The notes beneath the pieces are model-generated. The model worked only from the letters and a program-made list of their open reading frames with translations, was not told the DNA's origin and did not search any database. From Anaerolineae bacterium (GTDB taxonomy: Bacteria; Chloroflexota; Anaerolineae; Aggregatilineales; UBA3940): a stretch of DNA of 64,000 nt. Location of the stretch: positions 16,984 through 80,983 of the forward strand of contig DAOTXR010000048.1 of assembly GCA_034435375.1 (NCBI GenBank). Direction: 5' to 3'. The stretch's first letter is position 1. Each line of letters opens with the position of its first letter. Position numbers and translations under genes: made by a program. Positions 57,102-64,000 of the stretch are shown here, piece by piece.

Positions 57102-57584
57102 CTACTGTCCAATTGCTCTCAGCAGATTTGTGCCAACCGTCAAGGCCCAGACTGCCCGCTCGTCCCAGCGCAGCACGTATCCAGTGAAGTCCACCAGCAG
57201 CACCAATACCAGCAAGGCCATGCCGATCAGCCAATTGGAGCGGCGACGTTTGTATCCGCCGCTCAACGCCACACGGATCATGTGGAGTGTCACTGTCACG
57301 ACCATCGCTTGTCCGGCCCAGAAATGCAAATTACGGATCAGCCAGCCGTAAGGCACCACATAGGCAACCAGCTTCACGCTGTCGTTAGCTGCTTCCGGTG
57401 TAGGTAGGTAGTAGAATGTCTCCAGGATTCCCGTCACCGCCAGTATTACAAACAGAGCAATGCTGATTGTGCCCAGGTGAAAGGTGTAGGTGAATCGCGC
57501 GGCCGGCTGGGGCGTGCTCGGCATCCGCAGGTGCTCGTAGAAGGTAGGGCGACGCGCCATCGCTACTCTCTCACAGGCCATCAT
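57102..57584 (-). CDS. Cytochrome b, N-terminal fragment (helices A-C only)
   Basis: 160 aa. Helix A GTISIALFVILAVTGILETFYYLP. Helix B RNLHFWAGQAMVVTVTLHMIRVALSGGY (His-x13-His). Helix C FTGYVLRWDERAVWALTVGTNLL, then a stop. The ATGA overlap with the Rieske stop suggests translational coupling. Confidence 0.85.
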   Translation of the reverse strand: MMACERVAMARRPTFYEHLRMPSTPQPAARFTYTFHLGTISIALFVILAVTGILETFYYLPTPEAANDSVKLVAYVVPYGWLIRNLHFWAGQAMVVTVTLHMIRVALSGGYKRRRSNWLIGMALLVLVLLVDFTGYVLRWDERAVWALTVGTNLLRAIGQ

Positions 57585-58039
57585 ACCACGGGCAGCCGGA
57601 ATGTCCCATCCACCAGCTTCGAGCGATCGATGATGAGTTGTCCATCTTCATTCCAGTACATTTGCACAAAGTGCAACGGCTGCGATGCCGGCCCGGCCAC
57701 TACTGCGCCATTCAGTGCAAAGCGGCTTCCGTGGCATCCACAGTCAAAGCCCTGGCCTGCTTCCAGTCGCACGGTGCAACCGAGGTGTGTGCAGGTCGCA
57801 TCGACTGCATAGTAGCCCTCTACATCGCGGAATAGCCATACTCGCCCCTCTTCTATGTATGCTGGGAGGTCGGGCAACGACTCTGGCGCTCCCACGTTGA
57901 TCTGTGTGGCAGCGCGTGCAGGAGGCTCAAAGCCCAAGAAGCGGATTAGCTGGCCGATCCCTACCCCCAACGGGAGAATCCAGGCCAGATTCGCCACCCC
58001 AACCAGAATGTCCCTACGGCAGGCTGGCTTCTCACGCAC
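57581..58039 (-). CDS. Rieske [2Fe-2S] protein
   Basis: 152 aa. RRD-containing N-terminal anchor. Cluster boxes CTHLGC and CGCHGS. Confidence 0.9.
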   Translation of the reverse strand: MREKPACRRDILVGVANLAWILPLGVGIGQLIRFLGFEPPARAATQINVGAPESLPDLPAYIEEGRVWLFRDVEGYYAVDATCTHLGCTVRLEAGQGFDCGCHGSRFALNGAVVAGPASQPLHFVQMYWNEDGQLIIDRSKLVDGTFRLPVV

Positions 58040-58063
58040 AGCGATATTTTCCTCCTTTGGCTC

Positions 58064-58732
58064 CTATCGCAAGGCGGCGCGCACCGTCAGCGCCAGGATA
58101 GCCACGAACAGGACAATGACCACGATCTGCACGGCCCTTCCCTGCCGGTTGAACCACACTGCCACTCCCTCGTTTGACCAGTCGAAGTACGGCAGCAGGG
58201 CCAGCACCAGTAGCACGGCCAGCGGAACCAACACTCCAGCGATGGCAGGCGGCCATACCCGCAGCAGCTCTTGGATCCATAAGAAGATCCAGGGCGCCTG
58301 TGTATGCTCGACCAGCGCGCCCGGCTTGGCGGGCGGCCCCACCGGCGCATCAACCACTGTCGAGAGGACAATGAGCGACGCCAAGGTTAGGAAGAAGATC
58401 AGGACCTCACGCTGGATGAGGACCGCACGAGATACACGCGGCAGCGGCGGTTCACCAACGCCACGCTCTGGGCTGGAGACCCCGCCATCGCGCCGGACAC
58501 GGAAGCCATGCCATACGATCAACAGGAACAGAGGGACAGCGAGACCCATCATGTGCCAGGCGTAAAAGCGCAACAACGTCGTCTCGTTGATGGTTGGCCC
58601 ACCAACCACCAGCCGGTACAAAGCCTCACCGAACGGCATGGTTTCAAGGGGTGTATTGGCAACGCAGGCCGTCATCAGCAGGCTGACGGCTGCCACTACA
58701 GCAATGGTGATACCCTGTCTGGGGTGTAGCAC
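58064..58732 (-). CDS. Cytochrome b, C-terminal fragment (helix D plus subunit-IV-like helices E-G)
   Basis: PFGEALYRLVVGGPTINETTLLRFYAWHMMGLAVPLFLLIVWHGFRV (helix D, His-x14-His), then APWIFLWIQELLR at the PEWY position and two more helices. Start proposed at GTG 58732 (GAGAGG 6 nt upstream). The ORF-track maximum extends to 58882. Confidence 0.8.
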   Translation of the reverse strand: MLHPRQGITIAVVAAVSLLMTACVANTPLETMPFGEALYRLVVGGPTINETTLLRFYAWHMMGLAVPLFLLIVWHGFRVRRDGGVSSPERGVGEPPLPRVSRAVLIQREVLIFFLTLASLIVLSTVVDAPVGPPAKPGALVEHTQAPWIFLWIQELLRVWPPAIAGVLVPLAVLLVLALLPYFDWSNEGVAVWFNRQGRAVQIVVIVLFVAILALTVRAALR

Positions 58733-59091
58733 GTGAAGCCTCTCACGGCCAATTCCAGGTGCTTGTATGGGCGCATCCCAAGAGACCTGAATAGGTACAT
58801 GGCTGTACGGGCACAGATCGATGTCACTCCTCCCAACAACTCGAGCGAGCGGGCCGTGGGCCAGTATGACATACCTGCCCAACCCTTAGCAACATTTTAC
58901 CAGCGTCACTTCCGCAAAAAGGAAGTTGCCCGGTTCAACACCGGGCAACCGCGGCTCGTTAGGGCCTGCTTCCTATGTCGTCGTTAGTCAACTACGACCG
59001 GGTAGTTACATGACATTCGTCACAGCCCGTTTGTGACACCCGGCACTATTGACGGTGGGCAGACAGTATAGACTCATTGACGTAAGATATA

Positions 59092-59111
59092 TGCATATAC
59101 GCATATATGCA
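59092..59111. promoter_or_regulatory. Near-perfect 20-bp palindrome, candidate ArsR-family operator in the divergent intergenic region
   Basis: TGCATATACG|CATATATGCA (9 of 10 positions complementary). ATATATGCA also occurs as a direct repeat (59087-59095 and 59103-59111). It lies 25 nt upstream of the arsR-like ATG. TTGACG hexamers occur at 59049 and 59077. Confidence 0.5.
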
Positions 59112-59135: not shown

Positions 59136-59483
59136 ATGGACACTAACCTCCGCGAAGAGGTCTCCCGGCTGCATGCCCAGGTGTGTGGCGGGTTAGCCGA
59201 TCCCAACCGTATTCTGATTCTCTATGCCCTAAGCGAGAAGCCACATAGTGTTACAGACCTGGCAATTGGGTTAGGACTTTCACAGCCCACTGTCTCACGT
59301 CACCTCAAGACGTTACGTGAGCGCGGCATGGTGAACGCAACCCGTGAAGGTCAGTCGGTGATCTATGCCTTGTCTGACCACCGTATTATTCAGGCGCTGG
59401 ACCTGCTGCGTGCTTTTCTAGCTGAAAGCCTGGAGAGTCAGAGCGCGTTGGCCAGAACCGCCAGTGAAGAGACGCGCAGCTGA
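59136..59483 (+). CDS. ArsR/SmtB-family transcriptional regulator
   Basis: 115 aa. LADPNRILILYALSEKPHSVTDLAIGLGLSQPTVSRHLKTLRERGMV winged-helix core. A single Cys (AQVCGG). Confidence 0.88.
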   Translation: MDTNLREEVSRLHAQVCGGLADPNRILILYALSEKPHSVTDLAIGLGLSQPTVSRHLKTLRERGMVNATREGQSVIYALSDHRIIQALDLLRAFLAESLESQSALARTASEETRS

Positions 59484-59543
59484 GGTTCTGAGGAGGACCC
59501 CGGAGCCTGTTGACTATAGCCTGTTACGACTCAGGAGGCGCTT

Positions 59544-60497
59544 ATGCCCATCAACCGCATACGATATATGTTGATCGTCGCCCTGTTGGGCCTGATGGCC
59601 GCTGTCCTGCTGTGGCCCAGCCCGGTCGATGCTCAGTGCGGTACCCAGGCTTCGTCGTGCAAGAACTGCCACGAAGTTCAGGGCCAGGATCCTGTCAACG
59701 CCGACGGAGCCTGGCACGTCGATCATGCCTTTGGCGACTTCTGCGAGTGGTGTCATGCTGGCAACGTGACTGCCACCGATAAAGACGCCGCCCATCAGGG
59801 AATGATCTACCCCCTGGATGACGTGAAAACCAACTGCTCGACCTGTCATCCCGATGACTACGAGGCCCTGGCCGCCGGTTATGCCAGTGTGCTAGGCGTC
59901 ACGCTGACGACAGGCGAGTCGGCGAGTAGCAGTGATGCCGAAGCCCTAACGCAACTGCCAGATGAAGCAGCTTCTTCAGCGGAGCAGCCAGCTGGGCCGG
60001 ACCAGACCGAGACTGTCGTCTCATCATCTGCTGGAGCCTCGGATGCTGGTGTTGAGCTGATTGACCTCAATGACCGCTATGAAGAGGCAGTCGCCAGGCG
60101 CACACCAGGTCAGGTGAATGTGGGCAACGTGATCCTTGGTGTGATGCTAGTGGGGCTGGTTGGCGTTTCGGGTGTACTGATCTGGCGCTTTGAAGGGCTG
60201 GGGGACCGCTGGGCCGAGTTGCGTGGAAGACTGCCCAAACCCGCCCCCCCGATGGGCACTGCCGCCGTGGCTTCTGAAGCCTACCAGACACTCTTGCCAC
60301 TGCTTGAAAAGGCCAGCCCAGCAACGCTGGCATCCATTGCCCGACTGCTGGAGGAGGACCCACAGCGCGGTGGGCAGATGATCGAGGCGCTGGCCCGCAT
60401 CGACCCCCGCCTGGTCGAGATAGTGCGTCGCTTGGATGAGCGCGACCTCGATCTGCTAATGGTATTGGTCCGTGAGTTGAAGGACCGCAGCCAGTAA
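59544..60497 (+). CDS. Membrane-anchored triheme c-type cytochrome with acidic linker and cytoplasmic helical C-terminal domain
   Basis: 317 aa. Signal peptide, three CxxCH motifs (CKNCH, CEWCH, CSTCH) within ~70 aa, a Ser/Ala/Glu/Asp-rich linker, TM helix VGNVILGVMLVGLVGVSGVLIW, and ~110 aa of helical C-terminus. GGAGG lies 6 nt before the ATG. Confidence 0.8.
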   Translation: MPINRIRYMLIVALLGLMAAVLLWPSPVDAQCGTQASSCKNCHEVQGQDPVNADGAWHVDHAFGDFCEWCHAGNVTATDKDAAHQGMIYPLDDVKTNCSTCHPDDYEALAAGYASVLGVTLTTGESASSSDAEALTQLPDEAASSAEQPAGPDQTETVVSSSAGASDAGVELIDLNDRYEEAVARRTPGQVNVGNVILGVMLVGLVGVSGVLIWRFEGLGDRWAELRGRLPKPAPPMGTAAVASEAYQTLLPLLEKASPATLASIARLLEEDPQRGGQMIEALARIDPRLVEIVRRLDERDLDLLMVLVRELKDRSQ

Positions 60498-60594
60498 GGA
60501 CGCCCTGGGGCGCTCCGGGTGGTTATAGGAGTTGTTCTAACAGTGCACTTGCTGCCCTTGAACGCAGAACTGTCCTATTTAAGGAGATCGCGAA

Positions 60595-61110
60595 ATGCAA
60601 AATCCACTGAAGCAAGAGGAATGGTCGCCCTACGTAGCTGGCGCAGGGCTGGGACTGGTAGCGGTCCTGGCGCTGCTGTTAACCGAACAACTCCCCGGTT
60701 CGTCGGGCGCCTTCCAGAACCTAGCGGCATTTGTTGCCAAACCGCTTTTCCCTGACAACTTCTTTTTCCAATATATGATGCCCCCTGCCATTACCTGGCA
60801 GGTGTGGTTGTTGGTTGGCATCTTCTTCGGCGCGATGGCCTCTGCCCTTCTGGCTGGAGTGTGGAAGCTCGATCCCAACCCCGACCAGCAGTGGAAGAAA
60901 ATCTTCGGTCCTCAACCCTGGAAGCGCTGGGTGATGGCCTTCGTGGGAGGCATTGTTCTGGAATTTGCCGCCGGGATCGCGGGGGGTTGTACCAGTGGCC
61001 TGGCGATCAGTGGGTCGGTGCAGCTGGCCCCTGCTGCCTTTCTGTTCATCCCTGGGATGTTCATTGGCGGCATTCCCGTTGCGCTTGTGATCTACGGCAA
61101 GCGGTACTGA
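60595..61110 (+). CDS. YeeE/YedE-family (sulfur-compound transport) membrane protein, half 1
   Basis: 171 aa, four helices, conserved GGCTSG motif. AAGGAG lies 8 nt before the ATG. Confidence 0.75.
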   Translation: MQNPLKQEEWSPYVAGAGLGLVAVLALLLTEQLPGSSGAFQNLAAFVAKPLFPDNFFFQYMMPPAITWQVWLLVGIFFGAMASALLAGVWKLDPNPDQQWKKIFGPQPWKRWVMAFVGGIVLEFAAGIAGGCTSGLAISGSVQLAPAAFLFIPGMFIGGIPVALVIYGKRY

Positions 61111-61126
61111 TCGAGGAGGCTTTGCC

Positions 61127-61714
61127 ATGACTGTTGGATCTGTAATCATGACGATTGCACTTGGCTTCGTATTCGGTTGGACGCTGGATAAGGCCGGGCT
61201 GACCAAGTACAGCAAGATCGTGAATGTCTTTCGCTTCACCGACCTGACCGTGCTCAAATATATGCTCAGTGCAGTGGTCGTAGGCATGATTGGCATCTGG
61301 ACGTTCAAGGGACTAGGTTGGCTGGACCTGACCGGCACGGTCAATACCTATATCGTCGGCAACCTGCTGGGCGGGGTCTTGTTCGGCGTCGGCATGGCCG
61401 CCGCTGGTTTTTGTCCGGGCACCTGTGTCGCCGGTGGCGGCAGAGGACATTTGGACTATCTCGTCCCTGGTCTGTTGGGTTTTCTGACCGGCGCGGTAAT
61501 CTTTGGTCTGACCTATCGGAGCTTTATGCCTCAGCTCAAGGACATGTTGGATTTCGGCGCGTTGCCGCTTCCTCAGCTGCTCAATGTCAGCGCTGGGTTG
61601 ATGGTAGCTGTTTTTGCCCTGATGTTTCTCCTGGTGCTGTACATCCTGGATCGCACCGGAGCAGCCCGCAAAGACAGGCTGGCCGAGACGCTCAACGATA
61701 CTAGCGGGGACTAG
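61127..61714 (+). CDS. YeeE/YedE-family (sulfur-compound transport) membrane protein, half 2
   Basis: 195 aa, GFCPGTC motif. GAGGAGG lies upstream. 16 nt after half 1. Confidence 0.75.
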   Translation: MTVGSVIMTIALGFVFGWTLDKAGLTKYSKIVNVFRFTDLTVLKYMLSAVVVGMIGIWTFKGLGWLDLTGTVNTYIVGNLLGGVLFGVGMAAAGFCPGTCVAGGGRGHLDYLVPGLLGFLTGAVIFGLTYRSFMPQLKDMLDFGALPLPQLLNVSAGLMVAVFALMFLLVLYILDRTGAARKDRLAETLNDTSGD

Positions 61715-61769
61715 GCTGTGCAAGAGCAAGTAGCCATTCCGCCCCCTTGCTTCTTGTGAGGAGTTAACC

Positions 61770-64000
61770 ATGACCTATAAGCCGACGTCATTCCCCAGCC
61801 AGCCCCGTTTGACGCGCCGAGATTTCCTACGACTGGCAGCTATGGCCGGGACGGGTGCGGCCTACATGGCTATGACGAGCGATGCTAGGGCAGCGTCCAC
61901 TAACGGGCCTCACCTGCCCGGCCCACGTGTGGATGCCGTCGTGCCGACCATGTGCGAGATGTGTGTCTGGCGTTGCGGTGTTCTGGCCAAGGTGCGAGAA
62001 GGCAAGATTGTCAAGCTGGAGGGCAACCCTGAGCACTTGCACTCGCAGGGTCACCTGTGTGCACGCGGCCAGAGCGGCTTGATGATGACCTATGACCCCG
62101 ATCGCCTGCCGTTCCCGCTCAAGCGGGTGGGGGAGCGCGGCAGTGGCCGCTTCCAGCGTATCAGTTGGGAGCAAGCCCTTGACGAGATTGCTGAGAAGAT
62201 GCTCCAGATCAAAGAGCAGTACGGCCCGGAGGCCATGATCTTCTCTAGCACCCACAACCTCAGCCAGCCGTTGTTTGAGAACCTTCTCAGTGCCTACGGC
62301 TCGCCTAATTACGGCACGCAGCGCAGCCTGTGTTTTAACGCCATGATCGCTGCTCACCTGACCACCTTTGGCATTGAGGAGCCAAACCGCAACTATGACG
62401 GCGTTCGGTACATCATCCTCACCGGACGCAACCTGATGGAAGCCATCTCGACCAACGAGACCAAGGCGTTGATGCAGGCCATCGCCGACGGGGCGCATGT
62501 GGTCTATCTCGACCCACGTTTCACCAAGACGGCTTCCAAGTCAACTGAGTGGCTGCCAGTCAAGCCGGGTACCGACTTGGCATTTCACCTGGCATTGATC
62601 CACGTGATCGTCACCGAGAACCTCTATGATGCCGAGTTTGTCCAGCGGTACACGGTTGGGTTCGAGGAGCTGGAGCAGGCCATCCGGCCTTATACGCCGG
62701 AATGGGCTGCGCCCATCACCCAAATCCCAGCGGAGACCATTGCACGCATCGCCCGCGAATTTGCCGCCGCTAAGCCAGACAGTTTCGCTCATCCCGGCTG
62801 GCGTACTTCGAACTTCGTCAACAGCTTCCAGACCGAGCGCGCCATCACTATCCTGAATGCCCTGGTTGGAGTGTGTCACCAGCCGGGCATCTGCCGCCTG
62901 TTCTCCGAAGAGCCGCCAGTCGGGCTGGGTGCGCCGCCCCGACCCGCCTTCCCGCGCATCACAGCGCCGCGTTTGGACGGCGTGCCGTGGAAATATCCAC
63001 TCGTCCCACTCAAACTGGGTGTGTTCCAGGAGCTGCGCGATAACGTCTTGATCGGCCAGCCCTACCAGGCGCATGGTTGGTTCATCAGTCGCCAGAACCC
63101 AGCCATGAGCATCCCAGAGCGGGCCAAGACGGTGGCAGCCTTCAATAAGCTTGACCTGATGGTTGTGGTGGACATTTTTGTCAACGATACGGCCTGGTAC
63201 GCCGATTATGTTCTCCCGGAAGCTACCTACTTAGAGCGTTACGATCCGCTCCATGTCGTTGCCGACCGGGTATTCATCCGCCAGCCGGTGGTTGAACCGC
63301 TGGGCGAGTCGCGGTCGGCGCTATGGATCTACAAGCAACTTGGCGAGCGGTTGGGTCTGGGTGATTACTTCCAGTATGAAGACGATGAGGACTACATCCG
63401 CCAGCAACTTGCGCCGCTGGGCGTTAGCCTGGAGGAGATACGCCAGGTAGGCTACATTGAGGTGCACAACCCAGAACTTGAACCCCGATTCGTCTGGAAC
63501 ACCCCCAGCGGCAAGATCGAGATCGCCAGCGAGACGCTGCGCAATGCCGGTTTCTCTGCCGTGCCCACCTGGGAAGCTCCGCCTGAGCCTCCTGTTGGTC
63601 AGTTCTACTTGCTGACTGGCAAGGTGGGACAGCACACGCAGTTTGCTACTCAGAACAATCTGTACCTGCATGAGGTCTTCCCACGCAATGCGCTGTGGAT
63701 CCACCCCACTCCAGCCGCCGAACGTGGTATCCAGAGCGGTGATGAGGTGATTGTGCGCAGTGAGGTGGGCGAGGTGCGCATCGAAGCGTTGGTGACCGAA
63801 GGCATTCGTCCCGACTGCGTGTACATGACGCCCGGCTTTGGCCATCTCAGCAAGGGGTTGACAACTGCCTTCGGCGAAGGGGCAAGCAGCAGCGATGTGC
63901 ACGTCACCTACACCGATCCGGTCAGCGGCAGCCAGGCGCTTACGCAGACCTTCGTCACCGTCGAGAAGGCTCCGGTCATCAGCCTACTCTCGGTACCGGA
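61770..64000 (+). CDS. Tat-exported molybdopterin (bis-MGD) oxidoreductase catalytic subunit, polysulfide/thiosulfate-reductase-like (PsrA/PhsA-like), 3' end off window
   Basis: Absent from the ORF track (no stop in the window). My hand translation is open from ATG 61770 (GAGGAG upstream) to 64000. It shows twin-arginine signal LTRRDFLRLAAMAGTGAA, an N-terminal [4Fe-4S] motif CEMCVWRCG...(27 residues between Cys3 and Cys4)...C, and MGD-domain blocks (ILTGRN, VYLDPRFTKTA, WLPVKPGTDLA, LTGKVGQHTQF, GDEVIVRSEVGEV). Confidence 0.85.
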   Translation, partial: MTYKPTSFPSQPRLTRRDFLRLAAMAGTGAAYMAMTSDARAASTNGPHLPGPRVDAVVPTMCEMCVWRCGVLAKVREGKIVKLEGNPEHLHSQGHLCARGQSGLMMTYDPDRLPFPLKRVGERGSGRFQRISWEQALDEIAEKMLQIKEQYGPEAMIFSSTHNLSQPLFENLLSAYGSPNYGTQRSLCFNAMIAAHLTTFGIEEPNRNYDGVRYIILTGRNLMEAISTNETKALMQAIADGAHVVYLDPRFTKTASKSTEWLPVKPGTDLAFHLALIHVIVTENLYDAEFVQRYTVGFEELEQAIRPYTPEWAAPITQIPAETIARIAREFAAAKPDSFAHPGWRTSNFVNSFQTERAITILNALVGVCHQPGICRLFSEEPPVGLGAPPRPAFPRITAPRLDGVPWKYPLVPLKLGVFQELRDNVLIGQPYQAHGWFISRQNPAMSIPERAKTVAAFNKLDLMVVVDIFVNDTAWYADYVLPEATYLERYDPLHVVADRVFIRQPVVEPLGESRSALWIYKQLGERLGLGDYFQYEDDEDYIRQQLAPLGVSLEEIRQVGYIEVHNPELEPRFVWNTPSGKIEIASETLRNAGFSAVPTWEAPPEPPVGQFYLLTGKVGQHTQFATQNNLYLHEVFPRNALWIHPTPAAERGIQSGDEVIVRSEVGEVRIEALVTEGIRPDCVYMTPGFGHLSKGLTTAFGEGASSSDVHVTYTDPVSGSQALTQTFVTVEKAPVISLLSVP

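Follow-up and report, generated by a model that had tools for sequence, protein, structure and literature searches.

A cytochrome b encoded as two proteins in an Anaerolineae bacterium, cut between its haem-binding helices and with reversed gene order

Overview

The window (64,000 nt of contig DAOTXR010000048.1, from an Anaerolineae bacterium) carries a Rieske/cytochrome b module on its minus strand. Coordinates are window positions. The cytochrome b of this module is two proteins, cut between the haem-binding helices, and its gene order is reversed: the C-terminal part (C-piece) comes before the Rieske gene and the N-terminal part (N-piece) after it. This is genuine biology and not an artefact. 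Judged from its sequence, the module is b6-like, has seven helices, belongs to the 'APWY clade' type and is nearest to Geobacter ExtO/P/Q.

The module consists of three closely spaced open reading frames (ORFs): 58064..58882 (internal GTG at 58732), 57581..58039 and 57102..57584. All three had been described in an earlier note made from the sequence, and all are found in the ORF list and on reading of the sequence. Each piece has its own ribosome-binding site and its own stop. The features are the following.

58064..58732, minus strand: C-piece of cytochrome b (222 aa, GTG start); signal peptide, cd2 helix, helix D and subunit-IV-like helices E, F and G; delimited by Pfam/NCBIfam coordinates, homologue alignment and AlphaFold2 (AF2).
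58664..58732, minus strand: lipoprotein-type signal peptide of the C-piece (residues 1-23); lipobox L-M-T-A-C; Cys23 codon at 58664..58666.
58496..58633, minus strand: cd2 helix (FGEALYRLVVGG) and helix D; haem ligands His60 (58553..58555) and His75 (58508..58510), His-x14-His.
58286..58297, minus strand: Qo motif APWI, at the PEWY position of the ef loop; from sequence reading and alignment to mitochondrial cytochrome b.
57581..58039, minus strand: Rieske 2Fe-2S protein (152 aa); N-terminal membrane anchor containing RR; motifs CTHLGC and CGCHGS.
57102..57560, minus strand: N-piece of cytochrome b (152 aa from MARRP); helices A, B and C and cd1; the longest ORF starts at 57584.
57324..57326 and 57282..57284, minus strand: haem ligands His87 and His101 of the N-piece (160-aa numbering); from sequence and homologue alignment.

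The Rieske protein matches PF00355 (E 2.7e-10); its PetC and Rieske_proteo matches are below their cut-offs. Its gene sits between those of the two pieces in all split loci.

Two gene starts and one overlap given in the earlier note are revised. For the C-piece, the GTG at 58732 is retained (its 222-aa product is identical to database protein P0001) and 58882 is not. The ATGA overlap between the Rieske and N-piece genes would be lost, as 57584 is probably not a used start: the conserved start is MARRP at 57560, in 20 of 20 aligned homologues. The same note placed helix D at the start of the C-piece and omitted the lipoprotein signal peptide. This peptide (residues 1-23, with the lipobox Cys) precedes helix D and was found by alignment and by the lipobox pattern.

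Position of the break

The N-piece matches Pfam Cytochrome_B (PF00033) over profile positions 9-138 of 189 (E 7e-30) and NCBIfam ExtP over positions 6-149 of 205. The C-piece matches Cytochrom_B_N_2 (60-162 of 169), Cytochrome_B (134-181 of 189), Cytochrom_B_C (2-80 of 102) and ExtQ. In PDB alignments, the N-piece covers cytochrome b6 residues 33-157 and bovine cytochrome b residues 30-153, and the C-piece covers mouse and bovine cytochrome b from ~145-155 to ~317. Because these ranges abut, the two pieces are complementary, without meaningful overlap or gap.

The last residue of the N-piece corresponds to bovine Tyr155 (...GTNLLRAIGQ against ...ITNLLSAIPY). The C-piece becomes alignable again at the Gly157 equivalent (FGEALYRLVVGG against IGTNLVEWIWGG), and helix D is aligned over mouse/bovine G157-H182. 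The cut is therefore at the turn between the surface helices cd1 and cd2. Helices B and D are therefore on different polypeptides, and haems bL and bH would each be held across two chains. Profile coordinates and PDB alignments agree with the break after helix C given in the earlier note, and its placing of the haem ligands on two polypeptides follows from this break point.

The helix B pair (His-x13-His, HFWAGQAMVVTVTLH) is present in the downstream ORF, which ends in ...GTNLLRAIGQ and its stop. The helix D pair is seen in the upstream ORF as WH-x13-WH. The helix D motif has a single copy in the window (degenerate search), and the upstream ORF has no helices A-C of its own, whose presence would have spoken against the split. 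All four haem His are invariant (H87 and H101 of the N-piece, H60 and H75 of the C-piece) and align to bovine H83, H97, H182 and H196. APWI, read in place of PEWY as claimed, aligns at the PEWY position; among 25 aligned C-pieces, A146, P147 and W148 do not vary and I149 hardly does.

The contrast drawn earlier with the b6/subunit IV and QcrB/QcrC splits stands. Classical b6-type relatives end just after ...WRIRKDGGISVPL, a motif that lies inside the C-piece here. A possible relic of cd1 in the C-piece was considered and rejected: HMMER paired VANTPLETMPF with VITNLLSAIPY, but this linker is not conserved in the family and the pairing is treated as chance.

Conservation and selection

The three window proteins were mapped onto each of 80 related loci from species-representative genomes. 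The order C-piece, Rieske, N-piece was found in 10 loci (L002-L010 and L013) and an unsplit cytochrome b in 65; in L001 the C-piece is cut off by the contig end. Five additional loci (L081-L085) have the same order as the window. The order C-(M)-Rieske-N, in which M is an octahaem cytochrome c, is thus found in ~16 independent loci (window, L002-L010, L013, L081-L085), and this synteny upholds the permuted order that had been claimed. C-pieces of 215-240 aa form ~90 clusters at 90% identity and N-pieces ~40 clusters; their sources are Chloroflexota and Anaerolineae metagenome-assembled genomes (MAGs). The same strain is represented in two independent assemblies (NCBI contig of 409 kb, Logan contig of 85 kb) with identical genes in identical order, which excludes the assembly artefact that the earlier note had named as a way to be wrong.

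Ratios of non-synonymous to synonymous divergence (dN/dS) between the window and its relatives are 0.09-0.14 for the N-piece, 0.11-0.21 for the C-piece and 0.14-0.26 for the Rieske gene, with dS > 1 throughout. The same note's other reservation, that these are decayed fragments, is excluded by these values (0.09-0.26 overall). Pairwise distances of the N- and C-pieces are correlated (r = 0.91; 0 of 2000 Mantel permutations reach this value). Along their whole length, both pieces share 40-60% identity with unsplit relatives.

Two loci appear to have N-then-C splits: L032 (5559-6609) and L047 (2530-3712). Both were rejected, being single frameshifts in a contiguous gene of long-read (MFD) MAGs. 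They call for caution in automated surveys of split genes.

C-piece-like proteins were searched in a representative library of 1.84 billion proteins, and 16 short matches among the top 150 were inspected. Besides P0032, which represents the family itself, no credible second family split between helices C and D was found among these 150. The 16 short matches, which start either within helix C or at an internal cd-loop Met, resemble truncated fragments. P0269, checked at the DNA level, is a contig-edge fragment of an unsplit gene. P0161 (173 aa, on an 804-bp contig) is an N-terminal fragment of unsplit type (LKTIP) that ends in ...GTNLLKTIPQ, at the same cd1 position as the window N-piece. On so short a contig, it may be the product of a contig edge or a frameshift, or another fission.

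Signal peptide and topology of the C-piece

Residues 1-23 of the C-piece comprise a positively charged N-region, a hydrophobic core and the lipobox L-M-T-A-C. In 25 aligned C-pieces, cd2 is preceded by a variable positive/hydrophobic segment, an invariant Cys23 in L-[AST]-[AG]-C and a short variable linker. A pattern similar to PROSITE PS51257, with the requirement that it lie before a helix-D anchor pattern, was applied to 91 short homologues and 29 unsplit relatives. Both parts are found in 71 of the 91. Eleven more have a lipobox and fail the anchor pattern alone, one has a near-lipobox (LPLTAC), and the remaining eight are N-terminally truncated fragments. None of the 29 unsplit relatives has a lipobox. 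The lipobox lies 23-37 residues ahead of TLLRFY, in essentially all full-length C-pieces. The commonest forms are LAGC, LAAC, LTAC and LSAC; the window has MTAC.

Helix D spans the membrane from the p (outer) side to the n (inner) side. Since it must enter from the p side, the C-piece needs an exported N-terminus. The C-piece is a predicted substrate of signal peptidase II (SPII), whose N-terminus would be lipid-anchored on the p side.

AF2 models of the isolated C-piece and of P0130, a homologue of the N-piece with its cytochrome c domain, have pLDDT 65-66 and pTM ~0.4, at which secondary structure alone is usable. Helices of the C-piece are predicted at residues 4-25 (signal), 34-43 (cd2), 50-78 (D), 102-126 (E), 148-159 (ef), 162-183 (F) and 196-221 (G). 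Helices A, B and C are predicted in the N-piece of P0130. The C-piece model gave no informative Foldseek match (E ~1).

Origin of the split and of the gene order

Re-joined N- and C-pieces were compared with unsplit relatives in a neighbour-joining (NJ) tree (41 taxa, 332 columns, 100 bootstraps). All split forms group together (bootstrap 98/100), nested among unsplit relatives; a subclade with a short N-piece lies inside it. The sister group (bootstrap 76) consists of unsplit loci with the order dihaem cytochrome c, TorD-like gene, Rieske, cytochrome b, M. Because the split clade is monophyletic among unsplit relatives, the fission is derived and single.

Gene orders across the loci are N.C-M-R (majority), R-N.C-M and C-M-R-N (N.C, unsplit cytochrome b; R, Rieske). 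All are rotations of one cycle of cytochrome b, M and Rieske. An order in which C precedes N is not producible by insertion into the gene. The order C-M-R-N would most simply arise from tandem duplication of the operon followed by loss of its ends, or from an equivalent translocation with a breakpoint in the cd loop.

In four unsplit loci (L012, L022, L028 and L073), a gene for a TorD/NarJ-type chaperone (PF02613) lies between those of the dihaem lipoprotein cytochrome c and the Rieske protein. Its place is odd, as no molybdoenzyme gene was seen in the region examined. The TorD-like protein may act on the Tat-exported Rieske protein.

Long and short split forms

In most split loci, the N-piece has 256 aa and continues after cd1 into a class I cytochrome c domain (CxxCH, PF00034), whose model resembles the cytochrome c domain of caa3 oxidase (TM 0.74). 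In this long form, the gene of M (ExtM-like, ~440 aa, ~8 CxxCH) lies between the C-piece and Rieske genes. In the subclade of the window, the N-piece stops directly after cd1 (152 aa, at least 13 clusters) and M is encoded outside the operon. In the window strain, M is ~7 kb off on the opposite strand, just past the window end, with 47% identity to M of L002. The 256-aa N-piece with its cytochrome c domain, together with M, is the ancestral split form, and the loss of the domain in the window subclade is secondary.

H3, a trihaem cytochrome c encoded divergently from the module, accompanies all five short-N operons; the 10 long-form split loci lack it (the fused domain is seen in nine of them, and the contig of L007 ends before that domain). 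This distribution suggests that H3 and the fused domain are alternative electron partners. H3 is also encoded upstream of some unsplit operons.

A reciprocal exchange, in which the signal peptide and the fused domain would come from the dihaem lipoprotein cytochrome c of the unsplit sister operons, was considered and found no support. That cytochrome is likewise a lipobox protein. BLASTP comparison with it gave generic class I similarity (E 0.02-0.03) and no match for the signal peptide, and no homologue of the fused domain was found near any unsplit locus examined.

Divergent cluster and intergenic region

The genes upstream of the module, on the plus strand, are the following.

59136..64000, plus strand: divergent partner cluster; from Pfam/NCBIfam matches; adjoins C-Rieske-N in L081-L085.
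59136..59483, plus strand: ArsR; called in four of the five loci of the short-N subclade.
59544..60497, plus strand: H3, trihaem membrane cytochrome c; signal or anchor, three CxxCH, acidic Ser/Ala-rich linker, transmembrane helix, cytoplasmic tail of ~100 aa.
60595..61110 and 61127..61714, plus strand: YeeE/YedE halves; Pfam Sulf_transp.
61770 onward, plus strand: PhsA-like molybdoenzyme with a Tat signal; runs past the window end; 629 bits against a cut-off of 694.
59010..59110, strand not applicable: intergenic regulatory region; TATGCG-type repeat (GCATATATGCGTATATGCATATAT) and CRP/FNR-like palindrome TGTGACGAATGTCA(y), with TAGTG-N7-TCACAA before the palindrome.

No regulator gene is called between H3 and the C-piece in L083. 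The ~100-aa tail of H3 has no family match. Past the window end (L085, 1-7000), the PhsA-like gene is followed by genes of a 4Fe-4S subunit, a Ni_hydr_CYTB-type cytochrome b, the relocated M and an FmdE-like protein. The cluster common to all five short-N loci comprises, besides ArsR with the exception noted, H3, both YeeE/YedE halves, a small protein, the PhsA-like enzyme, the 4Fe-4S subunit and the Ni_hydr_CYTB-type b subunit; the opposite flank varies among genomes. The PhsA-like cluster is linked to the split Rieske/cytochrome b operon in five genomes.

The earlier statement that the operon has no c1/f-type gene is true of the operon itself and of no more. In the surroundings, H3 is encoded divergently and the octahaem ExtM-like gene lies ~7 kb away beyond the window; in the long split form a cytochrome c domain is, moreover, joined to the N-piece.

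The first YeeE/YedE half matches profile positions 172-309 (C-terminal half) and the second 8-157 (N-terminal half), so that their order, too, appears permuted. This may be ordinary, given the internal repeat of the family.

The blocks within 59010..59110, which include inverted repeats, are conserved in five genomes whose coding dS is > 1. They are probably operators shared by both divergent operons. A terminator-like hairpin (GGTTGCCCGG...CCGGGCAACT and a T-run) lies at 58924-58950 on the minus strand, in the 5′ leader of the C-piece gene. No upstream gene on that strand would call for a terminator, and the hairpin is not conserved in relatives. An Rfam scan of the locus, including the hairpin, gave no match.

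Comparison with known systems

PetB/PetD (b6f) and Firmicute QcrB/QcrC resemble the split cytochrome b in having seven helices in total on two polypeptides, with His-x13-His in helix B and His-x14-His in helix D (WHMMGLAVPLFLLIVWH). Cytochromes b6 are the best PDB sequence matches of the N-piece. QcrC has a class I cytochrome c domain fused to one piece, as does the long split form. In both systems, however, the split is after helix D and leaves both haem helices on one chain, whereas here it is between helices C and D. Their gene order is N-piece then C-piece; here it is C, Rieske, N. The lipoprotein signal peptide on the C-piece is unlike either system, and the cytochrome c domain is fused here to the N-piece after cd1 and not to subunit IV. 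The cysteine of haem ci (CxGG motif; PMC4122944) is absent: FHLG is read here, WGMG or FGLG also occur in homologues, and none has a Cys.

The best NCBIfam matches of both pieces and of M are ExtM/ExtO/ExtP/ExtQ of the selenite/tellurite reduction cluster of Geobacter (PMC5877670; NF040969, NF040970, NF040943). The two modules share a Rieske protein, a b6-like cytochrome b and a multihaem cytochrome c, in a gene context of chalcogen/sulfur metabolism. Equivalog cut-offs are not reached (ExtP, 159.1 against 290; ExtQ, 42.7 against 150; ExtM, 155.6 against 800). Because these scores are far below the cut-offs, the window pieces and M are not Ext orthologues. ExtP/ExtQ, moreover, are split at the classical site, and M has ~8 CxxCH against 12 haems reported for ExtM (PMC5877670). 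The Rieske/cytochrome b module is biochemically uncharacterised in Geobacter and here.

The 'APWY clade' of Kao and Hunte (2014; PMC4122944) comprises Chloroflexi and delta-Proteobacteria, and low-potential quinones or reverse action have been proposed for it. The window shares its Ala-Pro-Trp Qo motif but has Ile and not Tyr as the fourth residue, and lacks the cysteine of WCMGG. The members described are unsplit or split in the manner of b6. The same study paired whole N- and C-domain models and reported no split between helices C and D. Reviews of cytochrome b evolution describe splits between N- and C-domains only, including haloarchaeal and scattered proteobacterial cases (PMC4122944, PMC5600118). 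No prior description of a split between helices C and D was found in the literature searched.

The unsplit Chloroflexota relatives (L012, L022, L028, L073) are 50-62% identical to both pieces, have the same M and Rieske families in the same cyclic order, and form the sister group. They differ in having a single ORF (337-345 aa), no lipobox and no attached cytochrome c domain.

Single features of the split form have parallels in other protein families. In Bacillus CtaC and QoxA, respiratory subunits that span the membrane, an SPII signal brings the N-terminus to the outer face. In cytochrome b559 (PsbE/F) and SdhC/D, a bis-His haem is held between two polypeptides. To our knowledge, neither an SPII signal nor a cross-chain haem is known for a cytochrome b of the bc1/b6f superfamily.

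Proposed model and alternatives

The module is very probably a functional Rieske/cytochrome b quinol-cytochrome c oxidoreductase, whose cytochrome b was fissioned in this lineage at the cd1/cd2 turn and reassembles from two chains. Co-occurrence and co-divergence suggest that the N-piece, the C-piece and the Rieske protein form one quinol-oxidising membrane complex. The N-piece (A-C and cd1) and the C-piece (cd2 and D-G) would insert separately and pack into a normal four-helix haem bundle, in which bL and bH would each be ligated by one His of helix B (N-piece) and one of helix D (C-piece). Cleavage by the Sec/SPII pathway at Cys23 would leave the N-terminus of the C-piece lipid-anchored on the p side, ~10 residues before cd2. 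The Qo site would be formed by helix C and cd1 of the N-piece with cd2, the APWI ef loop and helix F of the C-piece. From the Rieske head, electrons would pass to c-type haems: those of the fused domain in the ancestral form, those of H3 or M in the window form. Where a class I cytochrome c domain follows the N-piece, at the p-side C-terminus that the fission created, it could plausibly accept electrons from the Rieske head within the complex. In the window subclade, this domain would have been lost and M moved to the end of the divergent ArsR-H3-YeeE-PhsABC-like operon, with H3 as candidate acceptor. Electrons may flow in either direction. The Phs-like enzyme encoded next to the module has a quinol-binding b subunit of its own.

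Several points weigh against this model. The same organisms possibly have a second, unsplit cytochrome b, the data being loci and not whole genomes. The break lies in the cd1-cd2 hairpin (Qo pocket and Rieske docking surface) and may alter catalysis. The Qo motif APWI has no acidic residue. Complexes of APWY type are uncharacterised and have been proposed possibly to run in reverse (PMC4122944). The AF2 models of the isolated pieces are of low confidence (pLDDT 65-66, pTM ~0.4), the signal peptide of the C-piece could stay as an uncleaved anchor, and no intermediate or relic of a duplication was found among the loci examined.

Some of these points could be taken to mean that the pieces are functional without forming a canonical cytochrome b, and make homo-oligomeric haem bundles or separate complexes with new roles. 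The break in a catalytically important hairpin, the atypical APWI, the uncharacterised state of the clade (PMC4122944) and the low confidence of the isolated-piece models would all fit such roles. Yet N and C always share one operon with Rieske and diverge together (r = 0.91), the exact bis-His residues of helices B and D are kept, and the full-length identity to unsplit relatives is 40-60%, so that separate roles seem distinctly improbable. Less credible still, and very improbable, is that the pieces are decaying, non-functional remnants in an organism that respires through another complex. An N-piece without its cytochrome c domain and an operon without M do resemble reduction. Yet at least five genomes and no fewer than 13 protein clusters keep this reduced form, always ending at the same point (152 aa). 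The dN/dS ratio stays at 0.09-0.26 against a saturated dS, neither the haem ligands nor the Rieske motifs vary, and M is still nearby (47% identity).

It is hardly conceivable that an ordinary cytochrome b gene has been wrongly joined, frameshifted or misannotated in a metagenome contig. Related long-read MAGs do contain frameshifts that look like splits (L032, L047), and a contig edge can mimic a C-piece (P0269). A frameshift, however, cannot yield a permuted order with Rieske in between; the arrangement recurs in ~16 loci of unrelated projects and in two independent assemblies of the strain, and both pieces come with separate ribosome-binding sites and stop codons, the C-piece also with a dedicated signal peptide. 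A variant of the two-chain model, in which the hydrophobic N-terminus of the C-piece stays uncleaved and serves as a signal anchor, forming an eighth transmembrane helix, is unlikely, though less so than the preceding alternatives. It is consistent with the AF2 helix at residues 4-25, and either solution orients helix D correctly. But the Cys is invariant in L-[AST]-[AG]-C while the other residues of the segment and the linker vary, which is the signature of SPII and not of a packing helix.

Implications

The split cytochrome b is conserved and under purifying selection, has adaptations of its own in the lipoprotein signal and the fused cytochrome c domain, and is not described in the literature searched. 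In automatic annotation, the split genes are called no more than 'cytochrome b N-terminal domain-containing' or 'hypothetical', and the architecture would be missed or miscounted by surveys that match up complete N- and C-domain hits.

Whether cytochrome b was originally long or short is debated, and part of the argument assumes that independent splits would hardly fall at the same point (PMC5600118, PMC4122944). The present fission has a clear polarity, since the outgroups are unsplit and the split clade is monophyletic, and it lies at another site, inside the haem bundle and the hairpin that forms the Qo lid. It indicates that the bundle would tolerate construction from two polypeptides, as far as assembly can be judged from the sequences, and that rotation of an operon can cut through a gene. 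It also provides a new placement for a c-type haem domain. The split form is a natural system for the order of haem insertion and assembly, for the role of cd1/cd2 connectivity in Qo gating, and for the insertion of polytopic proteins driven by a lipoprotein signal.

Only tentatively, and with more doubt than confidence, it may be proposed that the fission was selected and not just tolerated: a p-side C-terminus at the Rieske docking surface would allow a fused 'c1', and an SPII signal could be a general insertion route for polytopic proteins whose first helix runs from outside to inside. If so, the haem bundle of a bc complex would be buildable from two independently inserted chains, and N and C modules with different electron-exit partners (fused c domain, H3, M) would be evolutionarily exchangeable.

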